A stretch of 64,000 nt of DNA from an uncultured Anaerolineaceae bacterium (GCA_964500225.1 CAZCOA010000004.1:6479-70478); one strand, 5' to 3'. Positions 5,167-34,169 are shown, counted from the first letter of the stretch. The notes: generated from the sequence alone by a model not told the origin. Program-made: numbers and translations.

Positions 5167-5224
5167 GGAAGCGGGCGCATGCGGCGCGACACGTGCCCAC
5201 GCGGCAACACGTCAAGGAGATCAC

Positions 5225-5593: not shown

Positions 5594-5780
5594 TGGTCAT
5601 TCGGACCCCCATCACATCCGCATAGGCCCGCAGAGTTGCTTCGGTCATTGCCTGTGAGGCGAAGTGCGACTCGCCACCGCTCGCGGCCGCGGCGGACAAC
5701 TCGGCAAGACACTTGCGACCACGGCCAACCCGTTCACCATTGCCTCCGGCGATTCCACATCGGCAGTCTTCATGCCCGAC

Positions 5781-7436: not shown

Positions 7437-7442
7437 TGGGGT

Positions 7443-9790: not shown

Positions 9791-9802
9791 GCCAGCGTCT
9801 CG

Positions 9803-12010: not shown

Positions 12011-12012
12011 GA

Positions 12013-13454: not shown

Positions 13455-13798
13455 CGCGTGGTCGTCCTGTCATTGGCGACGGCACTGTGGGCGCGCCGCC
13501 CCTGCTCGCACAGGGCATCCTTCGGCTCAGCCTCTGCATGCCGCGATATGCGGACCGCCGTCACCAGACCGAGGCCCCTGCTCCGCTGCTGCTCTGCCTC
13601 GGGCAAGCGGCACGACTCGAAGGCCCGGCAACGAGCACACGGCGCAGTCGTTAGTCCACCACCCAATTGCCGCCGCCGGGAGGGCGCGACCAGCCGCACC
13701 GCCGCAGCTCCGACCAGGGCCAGCCCCGACCAACGGACCGCACTGGCCAACACGTCTCGCCTCGTCAGCCTCCGACAAATGCCGTGGGAATCCGTCAT
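13451..13798 (-). CDS. Small Tat-signal Cys-containing hypothetical protein
   Basis: 115 aa. RRLTRRDVLASAV Tat-like motif. CARCRAFESC cluster. ATGA-type overlaps with both neighbours suggest it is a genuine co-translated ORF, but composition is low-complexity. Confidence 0.4.
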   Translation of the reverse strand: MTDSHGICRRLTRRDVLASAVRWSGLALVGAAAVRLVAPSRRRQLGGGLTTAPCARCRAFESCRLPEAEQQRSRGLGLVTAVRISRHAEAEPKDALCEQGRRAHSAVANDRTTTR

Positions 13799-14763
13799 CT
13801 TTCTTCCTCATCACGTTCGAACACAAGCACCTCGTTCTGCGCCGGATCGACGACGAATATTCGCCCGCTTGCGTCCACAGCCAGGTCCATGCCGGCGCTG
13901 GCAGGGGTAAAGAACTCCGTGCCGATGATCCCCAGAACCCGTCCTTGGCGGTCGCTGACCTTGACACGGGGCGACCGGCCCTTTTCCGCGGTGACAACGC
14001 AGCAGTCAGCCGTCAGCGCAAGATTCGTCGGGTTGCAGCATCCGGGGAATCGGTTCGGCGCCATCCCCTGCCCGCCCCAGTATTCAAGACGCACGCCGCC
14101 GCGGCTGAATCGCTCGACGCGCCAGTAACCCGGATTCGTGATCATCACGTCACCGCCCGGTTCCACTGCCACATCCATGTACGGACTGGGGCAGAGAATT
14201 TGCGGCCGTCCCGTCGTCTCGTCGCGACCGGCCACACTGTCCACCAGGTCGCCGCTCACGTCGAAATGGTGCAAGGCTCGATTCCCCGCGTCTGCAAGCC
14301 ACACATCCACGCCATGCACAGCGATGCCCGTGACACATCCCAACTCTCCATGCCCGTCTCCGGGACGGCCCCAGGAGCATGTGAGCGTCCCGTCGGAATC
14401 GAAAACGTGGACGCACGTTTTCTCGGTCGCAAAGACGCGTCCCTCGGCCCCCACGGCCACCGCCGTGACCGGGCCCGGCGTCGGCATGTGACGGATCTGC
14501 ACCCACGCGGCGTCATACACCGTCACGCCGCCGGCCGAGGCCAGGTAGATGCGGCCATCATCGCCAAGGGCAATGCCCCTGAGGCCCTCGACGGCCGGCG
14601 TCTGCTTCAGAACCAGGCGGTATGTCCTCGGCATGGCCGTCGCCGCAGACTCGTCCCCCCTGCCGTGACCGACCGACGATGGGGCGTCCTTGTCAGCACA
14701 GCCGCACAGGCACATGGCGACAAAAACCTGGATGATCGTCCGTCCGTTCGTCATGGCTATCAC
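13795..14763 (-). CDS. NHL-repeat beta-propeller lipoprotein
   Basis: 322 aa. N-terminal signal with Cys (VFVAMCLCGCAD). Repeated motifs (GIALGDDGRIYLA, GIAVHGVDVWLAD, PMDVAVEPGGDVMITN, GMDLAVDASGRIFVVD) typical of NHL repeats. Confidence 0.65.
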   Translation of the reverse strand: MIAMTNGRTIIQVFVAMCLCGCADKDAPSSVGHGRGDESAATAMPRTYRLVLKQTPAVEGLRGIALGDDGRIYLASAGGVTVYDAAWVQIRHMPTPGPVTAVAVGAEGRVFATEKTCVHVFDSDGTLTCSWGRPGDGHGELGCVTGIAVHGVDVWLADAGNRALHHFDVSGDLVDSVAGRDETTGRPQILCPSPYMDVAVEPGGDVMITNPGYWRVERFSRGGVRLEYWGGQGMAPNRFPGCCNPTNLALTADCCVVTAEKGRSPRVKVSDRQGRVLGIIGTEFFTPASAGMDLAVDASGRIFVVDPAQNEVLVFERDEEER

Positions 14764-14785: not shown

Positions 14786-16198
14786 TCATGGAGCCACTCG
14801 CACGCATACCATCTCCGTCAAATCGCGGCAATAGATGCAGCCGTCGGCATACGCGATGGGACCCCAGGCGTCGTGTCCATTGAGAATCTTCGCGCGGCCG
14901 AGCTCCTTGTAACCTTCTGTGGTGGCTTCCACCATGACAAGTTCGCCGCTCTGTCCGCCGACGACGAACAACACTCCGTCGATGAGAATAAACGGGCCGA
15001 GCTCGAATTGTACCTTCGGACCGCTCGACCAGACCAACTCGCCGGCCAGGTCCAAACATGCCAGTTGTCCGCTCTCGGTCACGCCGTATAGGTGGTCCTT
15101 ATAAAGCACGGGCGTTTGTTGCTCGCAACTGAACACTTGCGGCTTAATGCGAAACACCTGTCCCACGTTGAAGCGGTCGCCCTCGGTCCAGACACGGACC
15201 ATCTGGGAGCCGACGCCGTAGCTGCCCGTGAAGAACAGACGGTCGGGTGCGACCACCACAGGCGACGGGCTGTTGGCAATTTTGATGACCCACTCAGGCC
15301 ATTTCCACAGGACGCGACCGTCGCCGGCAGCCACCGACACCACGCCGCCGCCCGAGCAATAGACGTATTGACGCACGCCGCCGAAATCGCAGACCATCAC
15401 CGACGACTCGGTCATTGTCCAATGGTCCGGGTTGGGGGTTCGCCAAACGATCCTGCCGGTGGCCAGCTCAACGGCCATCAGCAGCGGCCCATCTTTGGAC
15501 GGATCGCCGCCGGGAGCGATGATGGCGAGGTTCCCGTCAATGAGCGGACACTGCCCTGTGTACCATCGCGGCACCGTGGTTCCAAACTCCTTCACCAAGT
15601 CGAAGCCCCACACCTTCTCGCCCGTGTCGGTCCGCAGGCACGTGACGTGACACTTGGGCCCCATGGCCACGAGGTACTCGTCCGTGACGGCCGCCACAGT
15701 GCGAGACATGCCGTGGTTGCGTTTGACGGTGACGGAGTAGGAATACCGCCAGATCTCCTGGCCGTCGGCCGCCGAGAGGCAACGGATGGCGTCCTCGCGT
15801 TTGTCGCGGTCGTAGTCCACGACGAAGACCCGGCCCTTGTGAACGGCGGCGCCGGCATGGCCCTCGCCGACGGCAATGCGCCACAGCACCGGCGGCCCGC
15901 TCTCGGGCCACGAGCGCGCCACCACAGCCCCCTGCGGCACAATGCCATTGCGGTCCGGACCGCGAAACTGCGGCCACGAGCCATCCAGAGGCGCAGGCCG
16001 CCCGGTGCCACGAACAAGCGTTCCGGGATTAGCCGGAGGCGGCTCGGTCTCGCCGTCCGGCTTGGGCCGCTCGTCCAGCCCGGGCAGGCGCACGGACACC
16101 GTGACGTTCCGCGGCATCTGATACCAGTGCGCGAGCACCGCCCCGGCAGCAACGGCCGCGACCACAGGTGTCAGAATTACCAATACGCGGACCTTCAC
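14786..16198 (-). CDS. PQQ-like beta-propeller repeat protein with signal anchor (GTG start chosen at V25 of the track ORF)
   Basis: Hydrophobic N-terminus (VLVILTPVVAAVAAGAVLA). Repeated W-containing propeller blades (WPQFRGPDRNG, VLWRIAVGEG, EIWRYSY, KVWGFDL, RIVWRTP, RVLWKWP, ELVWSSGP). Confidence 0.65.
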   Translation of the reverse strand: MKVRVLVILTPVVAAVAAGAVLAHWYQMPRNVTVSVRLPGLDERPKPDGETEPPPANPGTLVRGTGRPAPLDGSWPQFRGPDRNGIVPQGAVVARSWPESGPPVLWRIAVGEGHAGAAVHKGRVFVVDYDRDKREDAIRCLSAADGQEIWRYSYSVTVKRNHGMSRTVAAVTDEYLVAMGPKCHVTCLRTDTGEKVWGFDLVKEFGTTVPRWYTGQCPLIDGNLAIIAPGGDPSKDGPLLMAVELATGRIVWRTPNPDHWTMTESSVMVCDFGGVRQYVYCSGGGVVSVAAGDGRVLWKWPEWVIKIANSPSPVVVAPDRLFFTGSYGVGSQMVRVWTEGDRFNVGQVFRIKPQVFSCEQQTPVLYKDHLYGVTESGQLACLDLAGELVWSSGPKVQFELGPFILIDGVLFVVGGQSGELVMVEATTEGYKELGRAKILNGHDAWGPIAYADGCIYCRDLTEMVCVRVAP

Positions 16199-16331: not shown

Positions 16332-17591
16332 TCAGGGTTTCGCAGCGAAACAGACCAGTACGCCCCCGCGGTTGCCGATAACCAGCCGTCCGTAGGCGAC
16401 CGCCGGCGAGGCGGAAATGGGTTCGCCGCCCACGTATCGCCACAGAAGCTTGCCCGTTTCCAGGGCCACCGCATATAGGTTCCCGTCGTCGCTCCCGACG
16501 AACACCCGGTCGCCGACGATCACCGGGGACGAATCGATTCTGTCCCTGGCCCTGAACTGCCACAGTTCCTCACCATTGTCGAGGTCCAGGCACCTGAGCC
16601 GCATGTCCTGCCCGCCGACCACCACGCGGTTGCCCTTGACGGCAGGCGAGCTATGAAAGACGACCGTCTGGTTGCCAACGTCGAACACCCACCGCGTCGC
16701 GTCCGTGTCGAGGTCCACGCACAGGACCGTGCCCATGTAGGTCGGCACCACCAGGCGCGCGCCGACCCGTGCCGGCGTGGCCAGGGCGATCTGGCCGGTG
16801 GCAATCTCAAGAGCCGGCCCGCCCACCTCGGCGTCCAGCGTATAGATGGTGCCGCTGCCGCAACTAAGCACAGTGACATCGCGACCCGATACCACGGGAC
16901 AGCCAAAGACCTCCGTGCCGACCTCGTAGTCCCAGAGTTTTTTGCCGTCCTCGATGGCGAGACAATAGACGTGATGGTCGAACGATCCGAAGATCACCCT
17001 GTCGCCAGCCACGGCGGCGGGCGACTGAATCGGCTGCTCGGCCTGGAACGACCACAGAACATCTCCCGTGACGGCATCGAACGCGCGAAAATCGCCCTCG
17101 TAGCTGCCCAGCAGCACACGATTGCCGACAACAAGGGGCGATGACGTGATCGTACCAGCCTCGCGGCGGTGCCAGAGGATCTCGCCGCTATCCAGCGAGA
17201 GGGCGTAAAGGCCGGCCCACTCGGTGCCGACATAGACTCGGCCGTCCACCACGGCGGCCGTCGAAGAGATCGGGCCTTCAAGATCCTTGCGCCACGCCAC
17301 GTGCAGCGTCCGCGGGAGCGACGACTCGGCAACGCCCGTACAGGCCGCATCGCCCCGAAAACACGGCCAGGCTCCCACTGCGGGAACCGATTCGGGCCCC
17401 ACATATGGATGTAGCACAGGCTCGGGATCGGACGATACGTCGTCGGACGTCGGCGAGATTCCCCGGTGGCCAAGAAGGATGGCCAACACAATGAGCATGA
17501 CACATACCGGACCGACGTACCAATGGGCGCGCATGGGACATGCGCGACCGCAGGAAGGTGGATGAGGCTCGGGAACCGTGGGATTGTCCAA
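16332..17591 (-). CDS. PQQ-like beta-propeller repeat protein with N-terminal membrane anchor
   Basis: 419 aa. VCVMLIVLAILLG anchor. Blades with ILWHRRE, DVLWSFQAE, KLWDYEV, TRWVFDV, ELWQFRA, KLLWRYVGG. Confidence 0.65.
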   Translation of the reverse strand: MDNPTVPEPHPPSCGRACPMRAHWYVGPVCVMLIVLAILLGHRGISPTSDDVSSDPEPVLHPYVGPESVPAVGAWPCFRGDAACTGVAESSLPRTLHVAWRKDLEGPISSTAAVVDGRVYVGTEWAGLYALSLDSGEILWHRREAGTITSSPLVVGNRVLLGSYEGDFRAFDAVTGDVLWSFQAEQPIQSPAAVAGDRVIFGSFDHHVYCLAIEDGKKLWDYEVGTEVFGCPVVSGRDVTVLSCGSGTIYTLDAEVGGPALEIATGQIALATPARVGARLVVPTYMGTVLCVDLDTDATRWVFDVGNQTVVFHSSPAVKGNRVVVGGQDMRLRCLDLDNGEELWQFRARDRIDSSPVIVGDRVFVGSDDGNLYAVALETGKLLWRYVGGEPISASPAVAYGRLVIGNRGGVLVCFAAKP

Positions 17592-17601
17592 GGCCGCCTC
17601 C

Positions 17602-20600
17602 TCACTCTGAACGTATTGCGCCCAGCAGGTCGGGCCCCACGGCTCGCTGCGTCACACCGACACAAGCCGCAATGGCCGCGGCCATGATGCCGCCCATTGT
17701 ACCGGCGAGTTGGAGCCACGGCACATCGGCCTTCGCCTGGATCATGTGCGGCGCGGCAGCCAGGAGGCCCGCCACACTGCCGATGGCCAGACCGGCGGCA
17801 ATCAGTATCACGGTCTCGGCCGACACCAGTCGTACGACCTGCCTTTGCGTGAATCCCAGCGCAAGCATCAGGGCCAGTTCGCCTCGCCGCTCCACGATGT
17901 TTCTGGCCAGCACGGTCGCGACAGCGAATGTGCCAAGAACCAACCCCAGCCCACTGAGGGCCTGAAAGGCCGCCAGGTACGTATTCTGCACGCCGGCATA
18001 GGCCGCCAGTACATCGGCTGTGCGACGAACGTCAACACCGGCGTCCTCCAGACCCTCGCGGAGTGCGTCCATCACCTGCGTCTGCCGCTCAGGAACCGTC
18101 TCCACAAGGAAACGCCGGTACCCGCCTCCGTCGCCGAACAGCCGCACCAAGTTTCCCTCAGACATCAGCAATTCGCTTTGCCACAGGCTTCCCCGGAGCA
18201 GACCGACGATACGCAGAGTCACGGGACCATGAGCGCCGGCCACCGTGATCGTCCCGTTGAGCCCCGACTTGAGAATCCATCGGACGCTCGCTTCGTCGCC
18301 AACGACCGGCACGCAGCCGTTGTCGAGCGTGACGTCCAGAAGCCGCCAGGGGTTCCGCTCATCGTGCATCGGGAGGGTTTGCGAGAACGCAAACCCGCCA
18401 CGTTCAATCAGAGCAGGCGGCACACCCACGATTCTCGGCGACTGCGGCTGCTGTAGGTTCAGGCAACTGGCATCGTCGCCATCATTCACGCGGAAGGATA
18501 GGATGGTGGCCCCTTGGAAGGCGCCCTCGTCGCCGAGTCCTGCCGCCTGCCTGCCGGCCGCCGTGCCAAGGTCCACGTGGATCGGCAACTCGCAGTCGGC
18601 CATGATCGCAAAGCCGCCCGCCCCGCCGTTGCGAGAAAACGTGTCCCACTGTGTTGGGTTGATCCGGTTGGCCGCTACCGTAACAAGGGTAAAGGCGGCG
18701 CACGCCAACAGGGCGGTTGTCAGGACACTGCGGGTTCGGCGGCGTCTGGCCCCGTGCAGGACCAGACTCTTCATGGAAAGACTTTGGCGGGCACGGGGGC
18801 GCGACGGGCGTTCCCCGGTGAGCACGGCTGCCATGGCCGCCAGCATCGCGACAAGCATCAGCCCACCGATCAAAAAGAACGCAGTCGCCGGCTTCATGGC
18901 GTTGCCGACAATGGAAGCGCCCAGCACGGCTGCCGCCGCGGCTGTGGCCAGCGACGCAATGAGCGTCGCCCCACGGCGTCCTTGTCGCAGATCCTCGACA
19001 GTGTGAAGCGATCGCCACCCGGCGAGGAGCACCACGGCCGTCTTGCGGCGAAGCAGCCACAGGGCCCATGCGACGGCCGCCATGGCAATGATCAGCCCCA
19101 CGGCGGCGCCGTTCACCAGACTGGACGACGACACGTACAAGTCCAACGTAAACGGCCCCAGCAGGCCGACCCATCGCGTCTTCAGCGTCCACAGAATTCC
19201 CGCGGCGTAGGCCACCGCCAGCGGAATGCCCGCGAGCACTGCAATAGCAGCATGAACCATCCCCTCGGCCAGAAACGACCGTGCCACGGCGCCAGGTGAA
19301 AATCCGATGGCCAGCATGATGCCGGCATCGCGGGCCCGCATCTCGACCGAGAGCCGCAGCAGTAACCCCACCAGCATCGCGGCGGCCAGAACAAGAAAAC
19401 TGCTCAACCCCAAAAAGAGGGATGCAAAATCGCTTGCCCCTTCGGCCGCTCGCAGCGCCTCGGCGCGCACGGGCCGAAACGTAAGGCCGACGTCCTGCGG
19501 CTTCAATGCGTTTCGCAAGGCCGCCGAATAGGTCTCCACGGACGGAACGCCCCCTTGCGGCCCATCGGCGGCAATCCTCACCGAGGTAACCCACGGGGAC
19601 TCGACTTGCGCCGCGCGGCGCCACAGGTCCTGCGCCGTCTGAGGGGAGACGAACGCTTTGGGCGCGGCTCTGTGCGCCTGCCAGTAGGCCTCGTCTTTGG
19701 GTCGAATACGCCCAAGGTCCAACGGAAACGGTGGCTTCCACTGCCTCATCGACGTAGCGTCGGTGATGCCAGGGAACTGGGGAATCAGCTCATCTTGGGC
19801 CGCAGCACCGACCATCGCAACGATCCCGCGGACGATGAATCGTCGTGAGTCGGTGCTGAGCGTGGCATCGGCGCCGATGCGATAATAGTCAACGGCCACA
19901 GTATCCCCCACCTTGGCGCCCAGATCGGCCGCAGCCCATGTATTGAGCAGGATGTCGTCGGTTCCCAGATTCAAGTCAACCGGCGTACCGTCGTCCTGCA
20001 CAAGGACGTCATGTCCTGCCTCCGCAGCATCCGCCACAGCGGCAATGGTGGAGTACGGTATGCCGTTCTCGCCGGATTCGCCGTCGACCTTGGTGATCGT
20101 ATTGGCGAGGTAGATCGACACCCGCGCGGCCCGATAGCCGCAGGCGTGTGCCGCCTCGCCCGCAGCGGCAACCTGACGCGACGAAAGCACCGTGTTAAGG
20201 CTTTCCACCGAAATCACGCGACCATGCGCCTGCTGCACGAGGCGTATCCCGCAGTCTTCAGGCGTGACGGCGTCGGCGAGCATAGTATTCAGTCGCCGCA
20301 CTTCTTCCTCGTCTCCGTGGCCGCTCCTCGCGTTGACAAGCAGCACATTGGCCTGCCCTGCTCGCCCGATGTGCCGTGCGAACCAGTCGTAGGCGACATA
20401 CACATTTCTCGGCCGCGGTCGGTCGCTTCGCAGCGAAAAACCGCCGAGTCCCTCGTCGGGCACGATCCTCGCGATCACCAGGCTCACCCGTTCGACCGTA
20501 TCGTTCAGGCTGCGACGACCGAACAGACTGGTCGAAGGAGCAGTCGATGCTCGCGCGAGATTCACAATAAGCGTGTCTCCGGTTCGCAGGGACAATTCGT

Positions 20601-21051
20601 TCGCAAGCGTCTGGTTCACCGCGGCATGTCGCCCGTCAAGAGCCGGCGCAGGCCCTGGCCCGAGCATCGGCGCGTCGGAAGGGTTCACTGCCCAGACCGA
20701 CACGTGGGGCAGTCGTACCGATGACGTCGGCGTGCTTGCAGCGGCATCCACTGCCAGAACGGCAGCAACGTCGCCGAATGCCGCCGTGAAGCCTTGCTGT
20801 GAGGCAAGGTCCTTTGCCAGGGCCGACCTGAAGAAGCCCGGCGCGGTCAGCGCAAAGTCGGTGCGCCCGAGACGTCGCAAAGCCAGGCTGCGCAGGCTGC
20901 CGTTGAACGAGTCGCCAACAAGAAGGGACCCGGCGACTACCGCCACGCCCACGGCCGCGCCGGCGACAACTGCGGCGTGGGTGCGCCGATAGTACCATAG
21001 GCTGCGAAGGACAAACCGCGCCAGGTTCACGCACAGACCTCCACACGACAT
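17602..21051 (-). CDS. ABC transporter permease, MacB/LolCE family, two FtsX domains in one about 1149-aa polypeptide
   Basis: Start chosen at the internal ATG (MSCGGLCVNLARFVLRSLWYY...) immediately after the ATPase stop. Multiple hydrophobic helix bundles separated by large soluble domains, as in FtsX-type permeases. Confidence 0.75.
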   Translation of the reverse strand: MSCGGLCVNLARFVLRSLWYYRRTHAAVVAGAAVGVAVVAGSLLVGDSFNGSLRSLALRRLGRTDFALTAPGFFRSALAKDLASQQGFTAAFGDVAAVLAVDAAASTPTSSVRLPHVSVWAVNPSDAPMLGPGPAPALDGRHAAVNQTLANELSLRTGDTLIVNLARASTAPSTSLFGRRSLNDTVERVSLVIARIVPDEGLGGFSLRSDRPRPRNVYVAYDWFARHIGRAGQANVLLVNARSGHGDEEEVRRLNTMLADAVTPEDCGIRLVQQAHGRVISVESLNTVLSSRQVAAAGEAAHACGYRAARVSIYLANTITKVDGESGENGIPYSTIAAVADAAEAGHDVLVQDDGTPVDLNLGTDDILLNTWAAADLGAKVGDTVAVDYYRIGADATLSTDSRRFIVRGIVAMVGAAAQDELIPQFPGITDATSMRQWKPPFPLDLGRIRPKDEAYWQAHRAAPKAFVSPQTAQDLWRRAAQVESPWVTSVRIAADGPQGGVPSVETYSAALRNALKPQDVGLTFRPVRAEALRAAEGASDFASLFLGLSSFLVLAAAMLVGLLLRLSVEMRARDAGIMLAIGFSPGAVARSFLAEGMVHAAIAVLAGIPLAVAYAAGILWTLKTRWVGLLGPFTLDLYVSSSSLVNGAAVGLIIAMAAVAWALWLLRRKTAVVLLAGWRSLHTVEDLRQGRRGATLIASLATAAAAAVLGASIVGNAMKPATAFFLIGGLMLVAMLAAMAAVLTGERPSRPRARQSLSMKSLVLHGARRRRTRSVLTTALLACAAFTLVTVAANRINPTQWDTFSRNGGAGGFAIMADCELPIHVDLGTAAGRQAAGLGDEGAFQGATILSFRVNDGDDASCLNLQQPQSPRIVGVPPALIERGGFAFSQTLPMHDERNPWRLLDVTLDNGCVPVVGDEASVRWILKSGLNGTITVAGAHGPVTLRIVGLLRGSLWQSELLMSEGNLVRLFGDGGGYRRFLVETVPERQTQVMDALREGLEDAGVDVRRTADVLAAYAGVQNTYLAAFQALSGLGLVLGTFAVATVLARNIVERRGELALMLALGFTQRQVVRLVSAETVILIAAGLAIGSVAGLLAAAPHMIQAKADVPWLQLAGTMGGIMAAAIAACVGVTQRAVGPDLLGAIRSE

Positions 21052-21052: not shown

Positions 21053-21754
21053 TCACGGCTGGCGGACGGGGGATAGACAGCCGTCGCGAAGCTCCAGGCA
21101 TCGTGAGAAACGTCTTGCCAGTTCGAGATTGTGGGTGACAACAATCAGCATCACATGCCGCTCGGCGGCCACCTCGCAGAACAGATCCGCCACCGTCGCC
21201 GCGGTGGCGCGATCCAGATTGCCCGTCGGCTCGTCGCACAAAAGCAGTGGCGGATTGTTGACCAAGGCCCGCGCCACGGCCACACGCTGCCGCTCGCCGC
21301 CCGACAGCCACTGCGGGAAGTCGTTCTCTCGCCCTGCCAGGCCGACGCGAGCCAGCAGGTCGGCAGCCCGCCGCACTCCGTCCACGGCGTCGTTCGAAGC
21401 CACCGTCGGAAGGGCCACATTCTCGATGACGGTACACTGCGGGAGCAGATGGTGATCCTGAAACACGAAGCCCACCCTTTTGCGTCGAAACTCAGCCAGG
21501 CGGTCGTCCTCAAGGACGGCAACGTCCACGTCGCCCAATTGCACGGTTCCCGACGTCGGCCGGTCCAGCGAGCCAATGATATTGAGCAGCGTGCTCTTGC
21601 CGCAGCCGGATGCCCCAACAATGGCAACGGTCTCGCCGGGCTCCACACGCAGCTCCACGCCTTTCAGGACGCTATGCTGGCCGGCCGGCGACGAGTACGT
21701 CTTACACAATCGGCTGACCTTTAGCGCAACCGCTTCCGATGCTGCGTTTGCCAT
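21053..21754 (-). CDS. ABC transporter ATP-binding protein (MacB/LolD type)
   Basis: Walker A GASGCGKST, signature LSGGERQRVAVARAL, Walker B LLLCDEPTGNLD, H-loop VTHN. Confidence 0.9.
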   Translation of the reverse strand: MANAASEAVALKVSRLCKTYSSPAGQHSVLKGVELRVEPGETVAIVGASGCGKSTLLNIIGSLDRPTSGTVQLGDVDVAVLEDDRLAEFRRKRVGFVFQDHHLLPQCTVIENVALPTVASNDAVDGVRRAADLLARVGLAGRENDFPQWLSGGERQRVAVARALVNNPPLLLCDEPTGNLDRATAATVADLFCEVAAERHVMLIVVTHNLELARRFSRCLELRDGCLSPVRQP

Positions 21755-21799
21755 GGTCCTCGTGACCCCGAAACCCCTCGGAACGTGCCGCCGACGCTG

Positions 21800-22777
21800 T
21801 CACTCCATCGAGCCGACCATGTCGGCGAGGATTGACAGCGCGGCCACACCATAAAACGTGTACTCAACGTCGGCCGTGCCGCCGACGGCCACCGGACGAA
21901 AACCTCCGCACGGGTTCTCAGTAGCCCGGAGGAACCGCCCAAGCGGTCCAAGCTTCAGAATCCCGGCCCGGCCAACGGCGGCCAATGCATAGAGTCCTGT
22001 GAACGTCGAGAGAAGGTCCCCGTCCTTCACGTTCGGGTGCGCCGCCAAACCGCCGTCCGGCCGCTGAAGGGATGCGAGGAAGGCGGCCCCTCTGGCTGAC
22101 GTCGCCTCATCCATGGCCTCCGCACCCGACAGAAAGCAAAGGGCGGCTGCCGTGGGGCTGGCCTGGCCCGCCGCGGCCCCGGGGTGTCCCGCGAAACCGC
22201 CGTCGGGCGTCGCACAGGCCCGTACTGCGTCCACGGCCCTGTCCAAGTCGGGCATGAGCCGCCCCATCAGATCGTAGCACATCAAGGCCAGGAAAGCGTA
22301 GTACGGACTCGTCACTCCCCCTGGCACGAGGGCCACCGCTCCATCGGCCGTGCGGCACGCGGCCAGCAGGTCAATCGACTCGTCCAGCCACGCATATCTT
22401 CGGCAATCCTCCGGAGGCATCAGCCCGACAGCCTCCAAAAAGCGAAGGCTCTGCCACACATCGAGGCACTCCAAAACACTCGTCATAGGCCGCTGCCGAG
22501 ACTTCAGCCATGCCGCAGCCGACATCCACGACGGGGCCTCTGCCGGAAGGCCGAGCACTATCAACGCATGCAGGGCGAACCGAGTGTAGTACGGATCGGC
22601 AGCACCGTCGGGACCGACAAACGCCCCGGTGCTGCTTTGTGTCGCAACAAGGTACTCCGTGTGCCTGCGACGGAAAGAACCGCCCAACACCGTCGATCCG
22701 GCACGCATCCGCCGATCCATCACGGCGTAACGCTGCGGCCTTGGATCGGACTCGGCTGGCCGGACAGGTCGGGTCAT
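21800..22777 (-). CDS. Prenyltransferase/squalene-oxidase (PFTB) repeat protein, alpha-alpha toroid
   Basis: 325 aa. Repeats of the DGGF(A/R)...Y(T)...AL type (DGGFAGHPGAAAG...AAALCFL, DGGLAAHPNVKDGDLLSTFTGLYAL, CGGFRPVAVGGTADVEYTFYGVAAL). Confidence 0.7.
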   Translation of the reverse strand: MTRPVRPAESDPRPQRYAVMDRRMRAGSTVLGGSFRRRHTEYLVATQSSTGAFVGPDGAADPYYTRFALHALIVLGLPAEAPSWMSAAAWLKSRQRPMTSVLECLDVWQSLRFLEAVGLMPPEDCRRYAWLDESIDLLAACRTADGAVALVPGGVTSPYYAFLALMCYDLMGRLMPDLDRAVDAVRACATPDGGFAGHPGAAAGQASPTAAALCFLSGAEAMDEATSARGAAFLASLQRPDGGLAAHPNVKDGDLLSTFTGLYALAAVGRAGILKLGPLGRFLRATENPCGGFRPVAVGGTADVEYTFYGVAALSILADMVGSME

Positions 22778-22807
22778 GGCATCGCTTCCGCGCCGCGGGA
22801 ACGCCCC

Positions 22808-24550
22808 TCAGAAGTCGTGGTCTCTCAGGACAACGCGTGTCAGAAATCGCATCAGGTGTCGCAGGGCCGGCCGACGAACCTGGTCGGCAACTTCCATCGC
22901 CCGCATGCGACACTTGTCCGCCAAGCGGGCGGCCTTCTCCGTGGCGCCGCACCGCTGATAGAGCTGTCGCACCTCGTCCACCAGGCCCCGTCGATCGAGG
23001 CCGTCGCCGGAACGGAACAACTCCTCCAGCCTGTCGGCCACCCCGTCGGCCGAGGCAAACGCCAGGAGGATGGTCGGCCGCCGCGCAACGATATCCTGTC
23101 CCGACAGGCGATGGTTGTCGTCGCTCGGACGGAGATCGTCCAGGTCGTCGAGCACCTGGTATGCCACGCCGAGATGGCGACAGAACGTGTCCACTCGTGC
23201 CGCGTCGTCGTCCAGGGGCCCAGTCAGCCGCATGCCGGCATACATCGCGGCGCCAAATGCCGGCGCCGTCTTCAGGGCATAGAGGGCAAGCACTTGGTCG
23301 GCGTCGGCGATGCGAGCCTGGTCGCCCGTCAGCAGAAGCTCGGTTCCCTGCCCTCGGCATAGTCTCAGGTGCGCCGAGGACAGGGCCGCCAGGATGTCGG
23401 CTATGCACTCAGCCCCAAGCGTGCCGGCCTGCGCCGCCACGAGACGATAGCCCAGACCGACGAGGTAATCGCCCGTATTGATAGCCGTCGCCTCGCCGTA
23501 GCGGGCATGCAGGGTCGGCTCGCCATAGCGGTAGGCGTCCTGGTCCTCCACATCGTCGTGAACCAGAGACGCCTTGTGAAACGCCTCCAAGGCGACTGCG
23601 ACGGAGGCCACCGGTTCTGTAACCACGTTATCGACGGCCGACCGGTTCAGGTCCGTCTCGTCCAGCCCGAGCATCGCGGCGTGGGCGGCCAGGGTGATAA
23701 ACGGCCGGAAGCGTTTGCCGCCGCGGGCGAGCCAGTCGCGGGCGATGCGCTCCGCCCGTGGCGGCAAGGAATCTTCGGCCGCCGGTCCCGAGCCGGTCAA
23801 CCACAGTAGCCGTTCCAGACTCTCGGGCCGAAACAGGTCCGATGCCTTCTGAAGCACGGTCACATAGCCCGTCACCGTGTACCGGTGATTCGCGACGTGC
23901 CATGCGAGTATCTCGCGGATTCGCTCGAGGTCGGCCACCGTGTCTCGGCAGCCGTCGCGCAGCAAAGGCACCCCCGCATACGGCACGCCAAGCTGGTAAA
24001 CCGTCTCGAAGCACTTTTCGAGCGAATCCAGACAGGCGACGCCGAGAATGGCCTCCACGCGGCCGGCCGCAAGGGCCTGCACCACCGCCGGCGTTCCTTC
24101 GGCCACGATCGTCTGATAGCCCAAGGCCCGCGCCTCGGCAAGCAGCCTGCCGATCGAACAGGATCCGCACAGGCGGCACTTTAGCCCTGTGGTATCGTAG
24201 GGGGCCGTACAGGTGTCCGCGTGACGCAGACAGTGTGGAAGCAGGAGCAGCCGTCGCGAGAATGCCGTCGCGGCAAACGCACCGCGGCATATCTCTGTGC
24301 CGATGGCCACCATAGCGAAATCGCGCCAATGGCGGTCCAGGCCAAGGCGTTTCAGGAGCGTAGCCGCCAGATTCTCCAGGTGTGCGCGATCCGGCAACCG
24401 TACGACATCGGCTTCGGCCGCGAGCTCGCGTGCAGCGTCCTCGATCCTACGACGTAGGGCCTCATTGCCCGCAAGTTCGCAGCCCTTGCCGTCGGATCGG
24501 CCGCCCAAATCGCCTGAGGCTGCATCGAATATGTATCCCATATGGGTCAT
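22808..24550 (-). CDS. Fusion: N-terminal Cys-rich domain of unknown function (I believe DUF116-like) plus C-terminal trans-polyprenyl diphosphate synthase (probably medium or long chain)
   Basis: Start at MTHMGYIF, ATGA-overlapped with the cyclase stop. N-terminal LLLPHCLRHADTCTAPYDTTGLKCRLCGSCSIG. C-terminal FARM LVHDDVEDQDAYRYG and SARM VLDDLDDL. Residues at FARM -4/-5 are S/A, which are small and resemble long-chain enzymes such as IspB; this is from memory. Confidence 0.8.
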   Translation of the reverse strand: MTHMGYIFDAASGDLGGRSDGKGCELAGNEALRRRIEDAARELAAEADVVRLPDRAHLENLAATLLKRLGLDRHWRDFAMVAIGTEICRGAFAATAFSRRLLLLPHCLRHADTCTAPYDTTGLKCRLCGSCSIGRLLAEARALGYQTIVAEGTPAVVQALAAGRVEAILGVACLDSLEKCFETVYQLGVPYAGVPLLRDGCRDTVADLERIREILAWHVANHRYTVTGYVTVLQKASDLFRPESLERLLWLTGSGPAAEDSLPPRAERIARDWLARGGKRFRPFITLAAHAAMLGLDETDLNRSAVDNVVTEPVASVAVALEAFHKASLVHDDVEDQDAYRYGEPTLHARYGEATAINTGDYLVGLGYRLVAAQAGTLGAECIADILAALSSAHLRLCRGQGTELLLTGDQARIADADQVLALYALKTAPAFGAAMYAGMRLTGPLDDDAARVDTFCRHLGVAYQVLDDLDDLRPSDDNHRLSGQDIVARRPTILLAFASADGVADRLEELFRSGDGLDRRGLVDEVRQLYQRCGATEKAARLADKCRMRAMEVADQVRRPALRHLMRFLTRVVLRDHDF

Positions 24551-26415
24551 CCGCAGCAACTGCCGGCTCCGCCCGGCGCGACAGCCGTTCCTTGGGCCAT
24601 TCTGTGCCAGTGTGACATCGCACGACCGAGTGCGGCCACCACAAAGATTATAGGGTAAATGCGCTCCGAATACCAAAGGCTCGTGAAATAGAGGCCTATG
24701 GGGGCCGGCCGGTCCAGACCGCCCTCCTGGACGCTTCGGATCAGAAATTCGCAGCCACGACGCACTGCCCGCACCTCGTCGGATCCAGACGCCCACGCAC
24801 ACAACGTTTCGACCGCCACGGCCGTCTCCTCGATGCTCGACGCCACTCCGCGTTGCCCGCCCCAACCGCCGTCGTCGTTCTGTGACGCGACGAGGAATGC
24901 CGCCCCGCGACGCGCCGCCGTTGCGTCACACATGCCGACGTCGCGATATGCGGCCAACACCCGAGCCGTACCGAAAACGCGGTTGTAGCCATCGGGGGCC
25001 GCCTGGTTGCCAAACCACAGGGCGGTCCACGCCCCATCATCGCCCTGAGCATCGGCCAGGTAGGCCAAGCCACGTCGCACAGCCCGGCCGCATGGCAGAT
25101 CGCGCTTCCGGTCTCTCCAGGCGTGAAGTGCCCTGACTGCATGAGCCGTCAGGTCGGCGCCGCTGCGGTCGAAAGGCAGCTTGCCCCATCCGCGGCAAAA
25201 CGTCGGCCAGCCGCCATCGTCGTTCTGGAGGTCGATCAGCCAGCGCAAGCCGTCTTGTGCTGCCGCGTCGGCCCGCGAAGACTGCCATCCGGACAGAGCC
25301 AGAAGAGCGCCGGCCGTATCATCCGCGTCGGGCACTCCTCCAGGCAAATCCGTCCACGGCCACCCGCCGGGCGGCGAATCGGTGAATGGATGCACCCGGC
25401 GACACTGGCTGCGTACCAGAAATTCAAGGCTCGCCTCGACGGTTGTATCCTGCCCTGCCGGCCCGGCCCGCAGCGCGTTGATCGCCAGCGACGTCAGCCA
25501 CAGCGACAGATTACTGTCGATGGGCCAAGCACCGTTATCGCGGACCGTTCGCTCAAGAAATTCGAGCGCCTTGGCCGTGACAGGATGGTCGTGGAGGCCG
25601 GCTCCGGCCAGACTCATCGCCACGAAGGCCGTCAAGGGAACCGCCTCGATAAAACCCCCGGAACTGGGCTGTATGGATTCCAGCCGACGCAGGGTCGGAG
25701 CCATGGCCCGGTCGCGAACGATCCTAAGCAGTGGGTTTCGGGTGGGCCGTTTGACGTGCAGCAACTGGCCGATGGCGATGAGCGCGGGCAAGGCATAACT
25801 AACAACATGAATCCGCAGCCGCCGCAACCAGCGATGCGACAACTGCGCCAACTCGAACGGCAGCCGCGGAATGGCCGACCATTCGGCCTGCCCGGCCAGG
25901 GCGCAGTTGACAAGAATCGGCACGGCAAACGTGCGGTCCTTGCCGTAGAACTGCGAGATCGCGGCGGCCCGGTCGGCCATAGTCGTCCCGGCCCGCTCTG
26001 TAAGCCAGGCATCGGCGCGCGCCGCAGCGGCCTTGACTTCACACTGCGAACCAGCCAGCGCAAGGGCGGCTCGCGCAAGCATCGTGGTGGCGAGGTTGCT
26101 CGGGCTGTCGGTGGTGTCGCCCCAGCCCCCGTCGCTATTCTGGTGAGTCATCAGCCACGCGGCTCCGGCCCGAATACGCGCGGCAGATACGTCACGGGCC
26201 GCAAGGCACAGGGCACTAACGGCTACCGCCGTCGAAAGTGCCGAGTCGGACAGACGCCCGGGCCAGCGGCCATCGCGATCACGCTCCGCCAGCAGACGGT
26301 CCACCACGTACCGATACGTGGCCGATATGCGGTCGAACAGGTCATCCGCAGCCGATACCCATCCGTCGGCCGCATAGCCGCATCCCTCCGCCGAAAACGT
26401 CGTGCGTTCACTCAT
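24547..26415 (-). CDS. Class II terpene cyclase, squalene-hopene cyclase family
   Basis: 622 aa. Catalytic DxDDTA motif (VPDADDTAGALLAL). Multiple QW motifs (QNSDGGWG, QNDDGGWP, QGDDGAWT, QNDDGGWGG). ATGA overlaps with both flanking genes. Confidence 0.85.
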   Translation of the reverse strand: MSERTTFSAEGCGYAADGWVSAADDLFDRISATYRYVVDRLLAERDRDGRWPGRLSDSALSTAVAVSALCLAARDVSAARIRAGAAWLMTHQNSDGGWGDTTDSPSNLATTMLARAALALAGSQCEVKAAAARADAWLTERAGTTMADRAAAISQFYGKDRTFAVPILVNCALAGQAEWSAIPRLPFELAQLSHRWLRRLRIHVVSYALPALIAIGQLLHVKRPTRNPLLRIVRDRAMAPTLRRLESIQPSSGGFIEAVPLTAFVAMSLAGAGLHDHPVTAKALEFLERTVRDNGAWPIDSNLSLWLTSLAINALRAGPAGQDTTVEASLEFLVRSQCRRVHPFTDSPPGGWPWTDLPGGVPDADDTAGALLALSGWQSSRADAAAQDGLRWLIDLQNDDGGWPTFCRGWGKLPFDRSGADLTAHAVRALHAWRDRKRDLPCGRAVRRGLAYLADAQGDDGAWTALWFGNQAAPDGYNRVFGTARVLAAYRDVGMCDATAARRGAAFLVASQNDDGGWGGQRGVASSIEETAVAVETLCAWASGSDEVRAVRRGCEFLIRSVQEGGLDRPAPIGLYFTSLWYSERIYPIIFVVAALGRAMSHWHRMAQGTAVAPGGAGSCCG

Positions 26416-27254
26416 GCACTGTCCAGCCGGTCCAGCCGGTCAATGAGCCTGTCGAGTTCATCGCGAGCCTCGCCGGTCTGAGGGGTACACCTTCGTGACT
26501 TGGACTCCGGCATCGTGGACGATTCCCCGAGGCCCTCTTGCCGTGAACATGCCACACGCTCAGTCTCGGCGGCCGCAAAACCGTTTGCAGCCTCACCCTG
26601 GTCGCCTTCCGCCCGCTGCTCGGGAGTCACCACACCCTCATCGCTTCCGGCGATCGCGGGATAGGCCTCGTAGTGCGGGAACATGATCGCCCGGGCCGGA
26701 CATATGCGGCTGCAGGCAGGGCAACCCGGCTTACAGTTGTCCGGGTTGGCTACCATCACGCGGTCCCCCGGACCGAGTTCATAGACGCCGAACAGGCAGA
26801 AGTCCACACACTGGCGACAGCCGACGCATCGCGAGTAGTCCACCACCGGGCACCATCGCGGCGAAACGGCGTCATCCATCTGTTGCACTGTGTTGGAGCC
26901 CATTCCCGGTTGGACGACCGCTCCTGCGGCCAGCGATTCGGCAAAGCTCTCCGGGGAGAATCGATCCTCCATTCGCACCACGCGGCTCACGCACTGCATG
27001 TCGCACCCCAGGGCTGCCAGGGTCCATCGGGCCGGACGCGCGTGCATCCACGTTGCCACAGCGACACGGCCCCGCAGTGTCGCCAAACGCCGTGCGACTG
27101 GGTGGTCGCGGGCCAAGTAATAAAGGTGTGGCGCCACGAGCACGAGACATTGGGTTCTGTCGCCGAGCCACTGGATGACGGCGTCCTCGAAGCGGCGTCT
27201 GTCGCCGCTACCGTCCACACAGCGTGAAACAACGATCACCTCAGGACGTTCCAT
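26412..27254 (-). CDS. 4Fe-4S dicluster ferredoxin-domain protein (hypothetical). ATG start at 27254 preferred over the GTG at 27284
   Basis: CVGCRQCVDFC and CKPGCPACSRICP motifs. An N-terminal about 100 aa of unknown fold. First gene of the terpene-cyclase transcription unit; the promoter-like element lies just upstream. Confidence 0.55.
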   Translation of the reverse strand: MERPEVIVVSRCVDGSGDRRRFEDAVIQWLGDRTQCLVLVAPHLYYLARDHPVARRLATLRGRVAVATWMHARPARWTLAALGCDMQCVSRVVRMEDRFSPESFAESLAAGAVVQPGMGSNTVQQMDDAVSPRWCPVVDYSRCVGCRQCVDFCLFGVYELGPGDRVMVANPDNCKPGCPACSRICPARAIMFPHYEAYPAIAGSDEGVVTPEQRAEGDQGEAANGFAAAETERVACSRQEGLGESSTMPESKSRRCTPQTGEARDELDRLIDRLDRLDSA

Positions 27255-27295
27255 CACCACTCCCGGCACGGCGCACGCGATCACACGCTGCCTTC

Positions 27296-27323
27296 ATTGT
27301 AGCGCAGCGCCGGCGACGGTCAA
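27296..27323 (-). promoter_or_regulatory. Candidate sigma70-type promoter (TTGACC-16 nt-TACAAT) for the ferredoxin/terpene-cyclase operon
   Basis: Read on the minus strand in the 100-bp gap between the phoU stop and the ferredoxin start. Coordinates are approximate to within 1-2 nt. Confidence 0.35.
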
Positions 27324-27385: not shown

Positions 27386-28060
27386 TCAATGTGGTCGGGA
27401 TTCCTTGGCTGCCTGGTGACGGGCGATCTTGCCGCCGACCATGTAGATGACGTCCTCGGCGATGTTGGTCGCATGGTCGGCAATGCGTTCCAGGTGCCGC
27501 GACACCGCCAGGACATTCAGACGCCCCGGAGCCAAGCGGCCCTGGCCGACAATTTCGGACCGGACGATCTCATAGACGCGACGGTTCAACTCGTCCACGC
27601 GGTCGTCTTCGTCGCACACGCGGCGTGCCAGTTCGCCGTCCATGCGGATCAGGGCGTCGATTCCCTGTTTCAGCATTGCCTGGGTGATCCGCACCATCTC
27701 GGAAATCTCCTCGGGCACCTCGCCGCACTCCTCGTCGCGGCACGAAATCGCCCGCTCCGCGATGTTCGCCGCCAGATCCCCGACGCGCTCGAGGTCGTTG
27801 TTCATCTTCAGCGCCACCACGATGAACCGCAGATCGATCGCCACAGGCTGATGCAAGGCGAGGATTTTGAGGCATTCCTCCTCGATGTCGATTTCGAGCA
27901 AGTCGATTCGCTCGTCATCGGCAATGACCGCCGCCGCCAATTCGGTGTCTCCCGTGGCGAACGCCGTTGCCGCGCGGCTCAGGCTCTCCTCCACCATGCC
28001 GCACAAGTGCAGGAGCTTGTCCTTGAGCTTCTCGACCTCGCGTTGGAAATGGACGGTCAT
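27386..28060 (-). CDS. phoU: Phosphate transport system regulator PhoU
   Basis: Two PhoU repeats (DLRFIVVALKMNNDLERVGDLAANIAE and LAVSRHLERIADHATNIAE). Start at MTVHFQREVEKL. Confidence 0.85.
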   Translation of the reverse strand: MTVHFQREVEKLKDKLLHLCGMVEESLSRAATAFATGDTELAAAVIADDERIDLLEIDIEEECLKILALHQPVAIDLRFIVVALKMNNDLERVGDLAANIAERAISCRDEECGEVPEEISEMVRITQAMLKQGIDALIRMDGELARRVCDEDDRVDELNRRVYEIVRSEIVGQGRLAPGRLNVLAVSRHLERIADHATNIAEDVIYMVGGKIARHQAAKESRPH

Positions 28061-28099
28061 TTTCTTCGCTCCTCTCGCGTCCCGCACTCCGCCACGATT

Positions 28100-28963
28100 C
28101 TATCCAAACCTTCCGGTAATGTAATCCTCGGTCCGTTTCTCTTTGGGATTCGTGAACACATCGCGGGTGGAACCGAATTCGATCAGGGCCCCCTCGTAGA
28201 AGAAGGCCGTCATGTCCGACACACGCGCCGCTTGCTGCATGTTGTGCGTCACGATGACGATCGTGTAGTTGCCGCGGAGTTCCTCGATCAGATCCTCGAT
28301 GCGGGCCGTGGATCGCGGGTCCAGGGCCGAGCACGGCTCGTCCATGAGGATCACCTCCGGCTCGACGGCCAGCGCCCGCGCCAGACACAGACGCTGTTGC
28401 TGGCCGCCCGACAGACCCACGGCATTGTCGCCGAGACGGTCCTTGACCTCGTCCCAGAGGGCTGCCGCCGTGAGGCTCTGCTCGACGATCTCCTGGAGCC
28501 GCGCGCGGTCCCGGATGCCTTGTAGCCGCGGCCCATAGGCCACATTGTCGAAAATGCTCTTGGGAAATGGATTCGGACGCTGGAACACCATGCCCACACG
28601 CGTCCTGAGGGCAACCACATCCACCCGCGGAGCGTACACGTCCTGGCCGTCCAGGGTAAGCAACCCCTCGGCCCTGCACCCTGGAATCAGATCGTTCATG
28701 CGGTTGATCGCGCGCAGAAAGGTGCTCTTGCCGCAACCGCTCGGCCCGATGATCGCCGTGACCTGCCCCGTGGGAATGGCCAGGCATACATCCTTGACAG
28801 CCTGGCTCTGCCCGTAATAGATGGAGAACTTTTCGGCCGTCACGTGGGCAACCGTCGATTCCTGCCCCGTGGCCGCTGCGCCGCCGGTACGCGGCACATC
28901 GGCGCGCCCGGGTCCGTCCTGCCTATTGCTGCCCATCGGTCGTTGCAGGGTGAACGTGTCCAC
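28100..28963 (-). CDS. pstB: Phosphate ABC transporter ATP-binding protein PstB
   Basis: [43 protein letters not shown]. The N-terminus may start later at M10. Confidence 0.9.
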
Positions 28964-28975
28964 CGGATCGTCCTC

Positions 28976-30352: not shown

Positions 30353-30360
30353 GTTTGGTC

Positions 30361-31578: not shown

Positions 31579-31606
31579 CCGCCCCTGTCACTGTAGGGCG
31601 CTCACA

Positions 31607-32482: not shown

Positions 32483-32520
32483 GGCACACTCCTTTTCTCT
32501 GTCTGAATTGTACGGCTTCA

Positions 32521-32560
32521 TAGTTATCGTTCGTTAACGTCACGTTAGGAATCGGTTAAT
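32521..32560 (-). promoter_or_regulatory. Candidate Pho box: four GTTAnnn 7-mers at 11-bp phasing (AGTTATC/GTTAACG/GTTAGGA/GTTAATC, plus-strand reading) upstream of pstS
   Basis: Direct repeat periodicity of about one helical turn, as for PhoB/PhoP boxes. Located 40-80 nt upstream of the pstS start. The consensus differs from the E. coli CTGTCAT box. Confidence 0.35.
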
Positions 32561-32573
32561 CTCATAACCCGCC

Positions 32574-33968: not shown

Positions 33969-34169
33969 GCATTCTCCTTTCATTTCAGACCGTCTATGTC
34001 CTAGTAAGGCCTCACGCCCGCTCGGCACACCGGCTATGCTCGGAGCAATACCTCCCCCGAACACATCCTTGACTTCACTCGGTTCAAAATAGATTGGCAC
34101 TATGAGCTTGGCGCAAACACAAGATTAATTGTGCGCTAACACAGCCCCCCGGGGCGACGGTCCAGACGC

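Follow-up and report, generated by a model that had tools for sequence, protein, structure and literature searches.

Gene order and boundaries of the operon

The stretch of DNA analysed here, referred to as the window, comprises 64,000 nucleotides from an uncultured Anaerolineaceae bacterium (GCA_964500225.1, CAZCOA010000004.1:6479-70478), and all positions are counted from its first nucleotide. The subject of the analysis is an operon in which the gene of a class II terpene cyclase adjoins that of a fusion protein, a DUF116 domain joined to a trans-polyprenyl diphosphate synthase. The two genes are accompanied by genes for a ferredoxin-like protein, an alpha-alpha toroid protein and an ABC exporter. 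The features are as follows.

27296..27323, minus strand: candidate sigma-70-like promoter, TTGACC-16-TACAAT, in the gap between phoU and the operon, matching 10 of 12 consensus positions
26412..27254, minus strand: ferredoxin-like protein, 280 residues, with a flavodoxin/CheY-like N-terminal domain, a 2x[4Fe-4S] domain and an acidic C-terminal helix
24547..26415, minus strand: class II terpene cyclase of the "SHC-like" (squalene-hopene cyclase-like) family, 622 residues, 0 transmembrane segments
25312..25329, minus strand: codons of the catalytic-acid motif D363-A-D-D-T-A368 of the cyclase, kept in 63 family members
22808..24550, minus strand: DUF116::trans-polyprenyl diphosphate synthase fusion, 580 residues
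23906..24364, minus strand: DUF116 domain of the fusion, residues 63-215, with seven invariant Cys and a Rossmann/flavodoxin-like alpha/beta fold
23012..23752, minus strand: polyprenyl synthase domain of the fusion, residues 267-513, with DDVED at 332-336, DDLDD at 468-472 and RYG in place of RRG
21800..22777, minus strand: prenyltransferase-beta-like alpha-alpha toroid protein (PF00432), 325 residues, lacking the zinc site
21053..21754, minus strand: LolD/MacB-like ABC ATPase (Pfam and NCBIfam scans)
17602..21030, minus strand: duplicated FtsX-type permease, 1142 residues, about 10 transmembrane segments and two large periplasmic loops
16332..17591, minus strand: BamB/PQQ-like beta-propeller with an N-terminal membrane anchor (Pfam, transmembrane prediction)
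14786..16198, minus strand: second BamB/PQQ-like beta-propeller with an N-terminal anchor (Pfam, transmembrane prediction)
13795..14763, minus strand: NHL/SGL-like beta-propeller with a lipoprotein-type signal (…CLCGC), a tentative member of the operon

All genes of the cluster are co-directional on the minus strand. The cyclase gene shares ATGA start/stop overlaps with both neighbours, at 26412-26415 on the ferredoxin side and at 24547-24550 on the fusion side, which bears out the coupling on both sides described in an earlier reading of the window from its sequence alone (the sequence-only reading). Three further descriptions in that reading proved accurate, namely a class II cyclase with DxDDTA and QW motifs (DADDTA and four canonical QW motifs are present), a Cys-rich DUF116-like domain joined to a polyprenyl synthase (PF01976 and PF00348 matches in the Pfam scan) and a prenyltransferase-repeat protein downstream (PF00432 match, 21800-22777). 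The ABC exporter was recognized correctly by its ATPase at 21053-21754, which is syntenic with the cluster in a sublineage, but the permease and the propellers extend the cluster beyond position 21053. Comparison of gene calls revealed the identical cluster on 8 independent metagenome contigs, therefore an assembly artefact is excluded. The cluster is a real, correctly described operon. The cyclase, fusion, toroid and ferredoxin-like proteins have no predicted transmembrane segments, and the propellers carry signal anchors.

The candidate promoter at 27323-27296 lies in the 131-nucleotide gap after phoU and is a joint-best match in 14.7 kb. The motif claimed by the sequence-only reading is thus present, well placed and matches 10 of 12 positions, although the promoter scan as a whole did not exceed chance, with 4 sites in 14.7 kb against 1.8 expected. 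A second promoter-like site with 10 of 12 matches, TTGGTA-18-TATAAT (24647-24676, minus strand), is located inside the 3' end of the cyclase gene. Positioned about 100 nucleotides before the start of the fusion gene, it could either drive the downstream genes from within the operon or have arisen by chance.

The cyclase and the synthase fusion

The cyclase has the two-domain class II fold (Pfam SQHop_cyclase_N, E = 2e-19; SQHop_cyclase_C, E = 4e-37) and contains, in addition to the D363-A-D-D-T-A368 motif, four canonical QxxxGxW and three degenerate QW motifs. It scored below the cutoffs of two curated models, with 119.6 bits against the hopene-cyclase equivalog TIGR01507 (cutoff 431.1) and 142.2 bits against the squalene/oxidosqualene cyclase subfamily TIGR01787 (cutoff 322.7). 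The best match to the solved squalene-hopene cyclase (SHC) of Alicyclobacillus reached only E = 2e-20. The reference set for sequence comparison comprised four plasmid-borne shc genes, from Streptomyces, Sinorhizobium, Methylorubrum and Trichlorobacter (four phyla), and two other cyclases. Amino acid sequence identity of the window cyclase is 25-31% to annotated SHCs and the two other cyclases, and 44-54% (median 50%) to 61 relatives from several phyla, drawn from loci of different species. The four reference SHCs share 38-56% identity with one another. A phylogeny of the cyclase against SHCs had been proposed along with the sequence-only reading. The neighbour-joining tree, computed over 580 columns, places the family apart from the four SHCs and the two other cyclases, the split from these six references occurring in 97 of 100 bootstraps.

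Squalene synthase, HpnC and HpnD were all searched for in the 64-kb window by tblastn (E <= 1) and by Pfam on the larger open reading frames, and none was found, in agreement with the earlier statement that the window lacks a squalene synthase. HpnC and HpnD likewise had no match in about 85 related loci (tblastn, E <= 1e-6). The TIGR01507 score, the 97/100 split and the absence of hpnC and hpnD uphold the proposal of a terpenoid gene cluster in which the cyclase is not an ordinary hopene cyclase and is unlinked to squalene genes; judged by its sequence, the enzyme is not a true SHC. Nonetheless, the catalytic DxDD, its His partner (TAH) and several aromatic residues of the cage are kept across the cyclase family, and the window cyclase looks like an active alkene-protonating enzyme. 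With a proton donor of the SHC type it would protonate a terminal C=C bond, and therefore no oxygen would be needed.

These results bear on ordinary hopanoid synthesis, in which a divergent but true SHC would use squalene produced elsewhere in the genome and the fusion would supply farnesyl diphosphate (FPP) only. The conserved DxDDTA, QW motifs, His partner and several cage aromatics are compatible with such a role, family members are annotated as squalene-hopene cyclases by JGI and NCBI, and some Planctomycetes make hopanoids. However, the cyclase falls far under the cutoffs of both curated models, belongs to a separate clade (97% bootstrap) and is never beside hpnC or hpnD in the approximately 85 loci. 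Solved FPP synthases also carry Tyr at the fifth position before the first DDxxD motif, where the fusion has Ala. The published view (PMC7306690) is that the clade makes no hopanoids. Ordinary hopanoid synthesis by the cluster is therefore unlikely.

The group to which the enzyme appears to belong has been described before. Santana-Molina et al. (2020; PMC7306690) defined "SHC-like" proteins and report that the planctomycete members keep the catalytic residues, that the genomic context suggests a non-squalene precursor, and that polycyclic terpenes other than hopanoids and sterols are probable products. McShea et al. (2025; PMC12414744) state that the function and structure of "SHC-like" cyclases, Gemmata included, are unknown, and regard their characterization as the key gap in understanding how sterol and hopanoid cyclases evolved. 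Both papers put the clade next to cyclases that act on head-to-tail polyprenyl substrates. No later paper resolving the function of the clade turned up in the literature. Assigned by the clade's description, the window cyclase fits it in taxa, length, catalytic residues and context. Common to both are the range over the PVC (Planctomycetes-Verrucomicrobia-Chlamydiae) group and Acidobacteriota, a length of 550-700 residues (622 here), the kept catalytic residues and the lack of squalene genes. The published distribution of the clade also takes in the FCB group. Nothing contradicts membership, and the relatives of the window cyclase occur in Planctomycetota, Verrucomicrobiota, Acidobacteriota and Armatimonadota. 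The non-squalene substrate put forward in the sequence-only reading is a reasonable idea, but one already published for the "SHC-like" clade (PMC7306690, PMC12414744).

The Cys-rich N-terminal domain of the fusion, for which a profile scan had been suggested, is DUF116 (PF01976; E = 2e-32, residues 63-215). It scored 112 bits against a cutoff of 25 and matches positions 4-155 of the 155 profile positions, such that the full domain is covered. The invariant cysteines are C107, C114, C125, C128, C131, C173 and C201. The polyprenyl_synt domain (PF00348; E = 4e-40, residues 267-513; 138 bits against a cutoff of 27) contains DDVED at 332 and DDLDD at 468, and the head-to-tail motifs GGKRxR, FARM, KT and SARM are intact. 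A327 and S328 occupy positions -5 and -4 before the first DDxxD. Ala at -5 is common to the fusion and E. coli IspB, in contrast to Tyr or Phe in four short-chain solved homologues. IspB Met123 and Met135, which we take to be the floor residues, align with Val371 and Leu390 of the fusion, residues of similar or smaller size. This pattern favours a medium- or long-chain product, although small residues before the first DDxxD are also a feature of type III geranylgeranyl diphosphate (GGPP) synthases. The solved relatives (FPP, GGPP, octaprenyl and nonaprenyl synthases) all matched at about E = 1e-19 to 1e-20, and these near-equal values therefore do not discriminate between chain lengths. Thus, the proposed likeness to long-chain enzymes holds for Ala at -5, as in IspB, but it concerns two residues only and no NCBIfam chain-length model reached its cutoff.

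A search of the protein collection for the fusion returned 2,421 significant matches (more than 2,400 protein clusters), and both PF01976 and PF00348 are present in all of the best 120. The fusion occurs in at least 593 species-representative loci, mostly of Planctomycetota (Schlesneria, Gemmataceae, Pirellulales, Isosphaera and others); among the matches listed, the other carriers are Verrucomicrobiota, including Methylacidiphilum, as well as Pyrinomonadaceae and Armatimonadia. The combination of DUF116 and PF00348 is already annotated by NCBI and JGI. These counts and annotations overturn the sequence-only reading's claim of novelty; the fusion is widespread and uncharacterized, not novel. 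A DUF116-only profile identified 1,443 representatives (50% clustering, 1.8 billion proteins), 321 of them at E <= 1e-30, and most of the best 150 matches are of fusion size (500-690 residues). About a fifth of DUF116 diversity (321 of 1,443, at the strictest threshold) belongs with fusions. No characterized member of DUF116 was found in the literature. In a Bipolaricaulota isolate, a DUF116 gene adjoins ispH, shc, hpnH and a polyprenyl synthase gene, which constitutes a second, independent link between DUF116 and isoprenoids.

Conserved neighbourhood and accessory proteins

Conservation of the gene order was assessed by tblastn of the window proteins against the related loci (designated L and a number), counting only loci with enough flanking DNA. 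The cyclase gene is located upstream of the fusion gene in 62 of 70 loci and directly adjacent to it in 57, and the adjacent pair is spread over Planctomycetota, Verrucomicrobiota, Acidobacteriota and Armatimonadota. A ferredoxin-like gene lies upstream of the fusion in 28 of 57 loci and is also found directly beside the cyclase in Schlesneria and Isosphaera loci, among others. Between ferredoxin and cyclase, 11 of 57 loci contain a B12-type radical-SAM (S-adenosylmethionine) gene, TIGR04013-like and encoding about 510 residues. The toroid gene is downstream of the fusion in 25 of 72 loci (immediately downstream in 17), and the ABC ATPase gene in 5 of 62. The full order of ferredoxin, radical-SAM enzyme, cyclase, fusion, toroid, ABC ATPase, FtsX permease and propellers occurs in L031, L089 and L097.

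In these three loci the B12-type radical-SAM genes are at L031:6568-8118, L089:6681-8207 and L097:6294-7979. This gene was searched for in the window and is absent. The radical-SAM gene of the window at 47740-48933 is unrelated to it. Some Pirellulaceae carry an HpnH-like radical-SAM gene at the B12-type position instead (e.g. L063:6205-7824). At L087:5875-7791, on a 1.46-Mb contig of a metagenome-assembled genome, the cyclase is split into 457 and 135 residues and a DNA methyltransferase gene separates it from the fusion; this is probably a decaying copy.

The pairing of cyclase and fusion could be a loose association, the fusion being a housekeeping polyprenyl synthase (e.g. for the menaquinone side chain) and its neighbours belonging to separate pathways. 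Almost all Planctomycetota carry the fusion, as expected of a housekeeping gene, and 8 of the 70 loci have no cyclase upstream. Adjacency in 57 of 70 loci over four phyla, together with the translational overlap in the window, makes this explanation improbable.

The ferredoxin-like protein contains two CxxCxxCxxxC-type 4Fe-4S motifs. Its presence agrees with the sequence-only reading; a longer form beginning at GTG 27284 is possible, but the start at ATG 27254, preceded by a GGGAG Shine-Dalgarno sequence, is better supported by JGI gene calls and homologues. The N-terminal domain is flavodoxin/CheY-like (pLDDT 85), with generic fold matches. The Cys patterns of the ferredoxin-like protein and of DUF116 suggest metal binding and a redox role. 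In nearly all of 36 homologues the ferredoxin-like protein ends, after a variable linker, in an acidic amphipathic helix, DELDxLIDxLDxLD (26412-26460 in the window), which looks like a docking peptide for some partner.

The toroid protein matches PF00432 with E = 9e-17 (61.9 bits, cutoff 26.5), and its best solved match is the beta subunit of Rab geranylgeranyl transferase (RabGGTase; E = 1e-11). Of the three zinc ligands, Asp254 is kept, whereas Leu256 and Tyr306 stand in place of Cys and His, respectively; this region is conserved across 25 homologues. No alpha-subunit (PPTA-repeat) gene is present among the called genes within 10 kb in the window, L088, L089 or L097. A working protein prenyltransferase was rejected for want of two of the three zinc ligands and of an alpha subunit, and an MstE-type beta-only cyclase was rejected because the matches are weak (E of about 0.01) and there is no conserved DxD. 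The simplest reading is that the toroid protein would bind a prenyl chain or hand it over.

These properties also enter into a meroterpenoid or prenyl-transfer route, in which the chain would first be attached to an acceptor, such as a sugar, a lipid or an aromatic head group, with either the toroid protein or the product of a gene located elsewhere as the catalyst, and its tail would then be cyclized as by Lon15 or MstE. A protein of prenyltransferase fold is encoded immediately downstream in 17 of 72 loci, MstE-type beta-only cyclases are among its weak matches, and the published sister clade acts on polyprenyl chains and includes the meroterpenoid enzyme Lon15 (PMC12414744). Nevertheless, the toroid protein has neither the Cys and His zinc ligands nor a conserved DxD acid, no UbiA- or ABBA-type prenyltransferase or aromatic-acceptor gene was seen in the operon, and about 65% of loci have no toroid gene near the core pair, all of which renders the route rather unlikely.

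The ABC ATPase scored 242.7 bits against the LolD model (cutoff 307.75) and 196.6 bits against the MacB model (cutoff 966), below the cutoff in both cases. The FtsX permease is syntenic with the cluster in L031, L055, L069, L073, L089, L096 and L097, as is the BamB/PQQ-like propeller. The NHL/SGL-like propeller is syntenic in L031 and L089, and the L089 homologue is ScyF-like. In L097, a PQQ_2 propeller gene lies between the fusion and toroid genes, that is, inside the terpenoid block, and the exporter module is therefore tied to the terpenoid genes in this sublineage. The earlier association of an ABC exporter with the cluster is thus sustained for a sublineage.

Proposed function and comparison with known systems

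The preferred reading, to which we assign a probability of about 0.55, is that the operon makes, cyclizes and exports a non-hopanoid cyclic lipid derived from a regular head-to-tail polyprenyl chain, and does so anoxically. The product of the synthase would be a medium- or long-chain all-trans polyprenyl diphosphate, perhaps C30-C40, and the translationally coupled cyclase would fold the far end of this regular chain into rings. The zinc-less toroid protein may bind the prenyl chain or pass it on. The Cys-rich DUF116 domain and the dedicated ferredoxin would perform or feed a redox step, and in many relatives they may also serve the adjacent radical-SAM tailoring enzyme, which the window lacks. 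The LolD/FtsX transporter and the membrane-anchored propellers would draw the lipid out of the inner membrane in the direction of the envelope. This scheme is supported by the presence in the fusion of both Asp-rich motifs of a head-to-tail trans-prenyl diphosphate synthase, and by the DxDDTA motif, His partner and most of the aromatic cage kept in the cyclase. Proteins that are typical of anaerobes, namely HdrA/MvhD-like, NuoF-like and membrane polyferredoxin proteins, are likewise encoded in the window. The host is judged from these electron-transfer genes to be an anaerobe, and this gene content fits oxygen-independent protonation of an alkene over epoxide chemistry.

Several observations weigh against the proposed scheme. 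The NCBIfam chain-length models all scored far below cutoff with little spread, and the best partial matches were to short-chain families. The DUF116 domain and the N-terminal domain of the ferredoxin-like protein gave generic fold matches only. The companions of the core pair are present in a minority of loci (toroid 35%, ferredoxin 49%, radical-SAM 19% and ABC 8%), and their roles may be accessory or unrelated. Finally, the nearly universal RRG, which follows the first Asp-rich motif in all five of the closest solved enzymes, is RYG in the fusion (R341-Y342-G343, 23527-23535), invariantly so in 20 of 20 aligned family members. RRG is part of the site for the diphosphate and isopentenyl diphosphate (IPP), and its second Arg contacts the IPP diphosphate in FPP synthase. 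The RYG sequence may thus indicate an altered second-substrate site, in which case IPP is possibly not the second substrate.

The same substitution might be explained by irregular coupling, whereby the synthase-fold domain would join two prenyl diphosphates reductively with electrons from the ferredoxin, replacing squalene synthase or HpnCDE, and the cyclase would take the product. The synthase carries a seven-Cys, probably metal-binding domain, a dedicated ferredoxin heads the operon, and FPP-synthase-fold enzymes, for example chrysanthemyl diphosphate synthase, perform irregular coupling. However, the other head-to-tail motifs (GGKRxR, FARM, KT and SARM) are intact, and metal or cluster binding by DUF116 is putative. 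PMC7306690 provides an argument on either side, in that there are lineages with cyclases but without a known squalene synthase, whereas most Planctomycetes already have HpnCDE. Irregular coupling is considered very improbable.

Within the preferred reading of a cyclized regular chain, it is possible, though doubtful, that the products of the pair are polycyclic regular polyprenoids like tricyclohexaprenol or tricyclopolyprenol, formed without oxygen. Planctomycetes typically carry menaquinone-6 (MK-6), and a C30 hexaprenyl chain would fit with it. If true, Planctomycetes and their relatives would be a source of the tricyclic terpanes (cheilanthane) and tetracyclic polyprenoid hydrocarbons of sediments and oils, the producers of which were reportedly unknown to Ourisson and co-workers in the 1980s and are said to have remained so for some forty years. 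The iron-sulfur partner and the Lol-like exporter would then be new elements of bacterial polycyclic-lipid biology.

The surroundings of the operon in the window include a complete phosphate-uptake regulon directly upstream on the same strand (27386-36023), which encodes PhoU, PstB, PstA, PstC, PstS, a Porin_5 porin and a PAS/HAMP histidine kinase. The pst/phoU operon is not part of the cluster, and its position raises the question of read-through or of phosphate-linked regulation. An anaerobic electron-transfer module spans 1442-13140 and comprises an HdrA/MvhD-like flavoprotein (1442-3526, plus strand), a NuoG/GltD-like protein (5781-7436), a NuoF-like protein (7443-9284), a PQQ-like propeller of 772 residues (9803-12121) and a membrane Fer4_5 polyferredoxin (12013-13140). 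In L089, too, the propellers are followed by a Fer4 gene, so the last two members listed may belong to the exporter module. The radical-SAM gene at 47740-48933 (minus strand) adjoins the gene of a 797-residue protein (49133-51526, plus strand) that combines an N-terminal squalene-cyclase-like repeat with DUF4159; the genome here uses the toroid repeat a second time, in an unrelated setting. The 778-residue open reading frame at 58623-60959 (minus strand) has GreA/GreB domains in its last 160 residues only, the N-terminal 600 having no family match, and may be an over-long call in GC-rich DNA or an unusual fusion. In the 906-residue protein at 40429-43149 (minus strand), a Big_5 domain is combined with a type I dockerin at the C-terminus. 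Outside the cellulosome-forming Firmicutes, dockerins are unusual.

The cluster adds another copy to an operon that is widespread in Planctomycetes and their relatives, and the identity of its product is an already recognized question. Among the branches of the triterpenoid-cyclase superfamily that have no known substrate or product, the "SHC-like" cyclases form the largest, and the window, from an anaerobe, contains the operon in a compact five-gene form with translational coupling. The comparison of approximately 85 loci names the set of genes for co-expression, with the cyclase and the DUF116::synthase fusion as the core pair, and with the ferredoxin, the radical-SAM enzyme, the zinc-less and putatively prenyl-binding toroid protein and the Lol-like exporter as recurrent accessories. 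Identification of the product could tie an orphan sedimentary biomarker to a bacterial group and could reveal a first function for DUF116. The locus is valuable chiefly as a compact set of constructs with which to address a problem openly acknowledged as unsolved.

The cyclase shares with Alicyclobacillus SHC (PDB 1GSZ/2SQC; TIGR01507) the two-domain class II fold, DxDDTA, QW repeats, His partner and aromatic cage, but differs in its 25-31% identity, its score (120 bits against the 431-bit cutoff), its separate clade and the absence of hpn neighbours. The epoxy-polyprenyl cyclases Lon15, AtoE, Bra4 and PlaT2, compared by description, form the published sister group and act on head-to-tail chains, as the window cyclase probably does. 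Those enzymes open an epoxide and need oxygen-dependent epoxidation, in contrast to the DxDD enzyme of an anaerobe. The Bacillus sesquarterpene pathway (HepS/HepT, YtpB, SqhC) follows the same logic, with a long-chain synthase feeding an SHC relative that uses a non-squalene substrate; it differs in having a two-subunit synthase rather than one fused protein and occurs in other taxa. The fusion scored 74 bits against the HepT model (cutoff 457). No YtpB-like class I enzyme appears among the domain assignments of the operon genes, although no search with a YtpB reference was made, and the sesquarterpene-type analogy drawn in the sequence-only reading is weak for an operon apparently without that partner.

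The synthase domain resembles E. coli IspB (PDB 3WJK/5ZE6) in its DDxxD motifs, in Ala at -5 and in the similar or smaller size of the floor-aligned residues, and differs in its match of about E = 1e-19, no better than to FPP and GGPP synthases, in RYG and in the N-terminal DUF116 domain. The toroid protein has the alpha-alpha barrel repeats of RabGGTase beta (PDB 1DCE/3DSS), with the zinc ligands Cys and His changed to Leu and Tyr and with no alpha subunit encoded nearby. The exporter resembles type VII ABC transporters (MacB, LolCDE and FtsEX) in combining a LolD-like ATPase with an FtsX-fold permease that has large periplasmic loops. It differs from them in that the permease is a duplicated protein of 1142 residues, the ATPase stays under the LolD cutoff, and BamB-like propellers take the place of LolA/LolB or MacA/TolC as partners.

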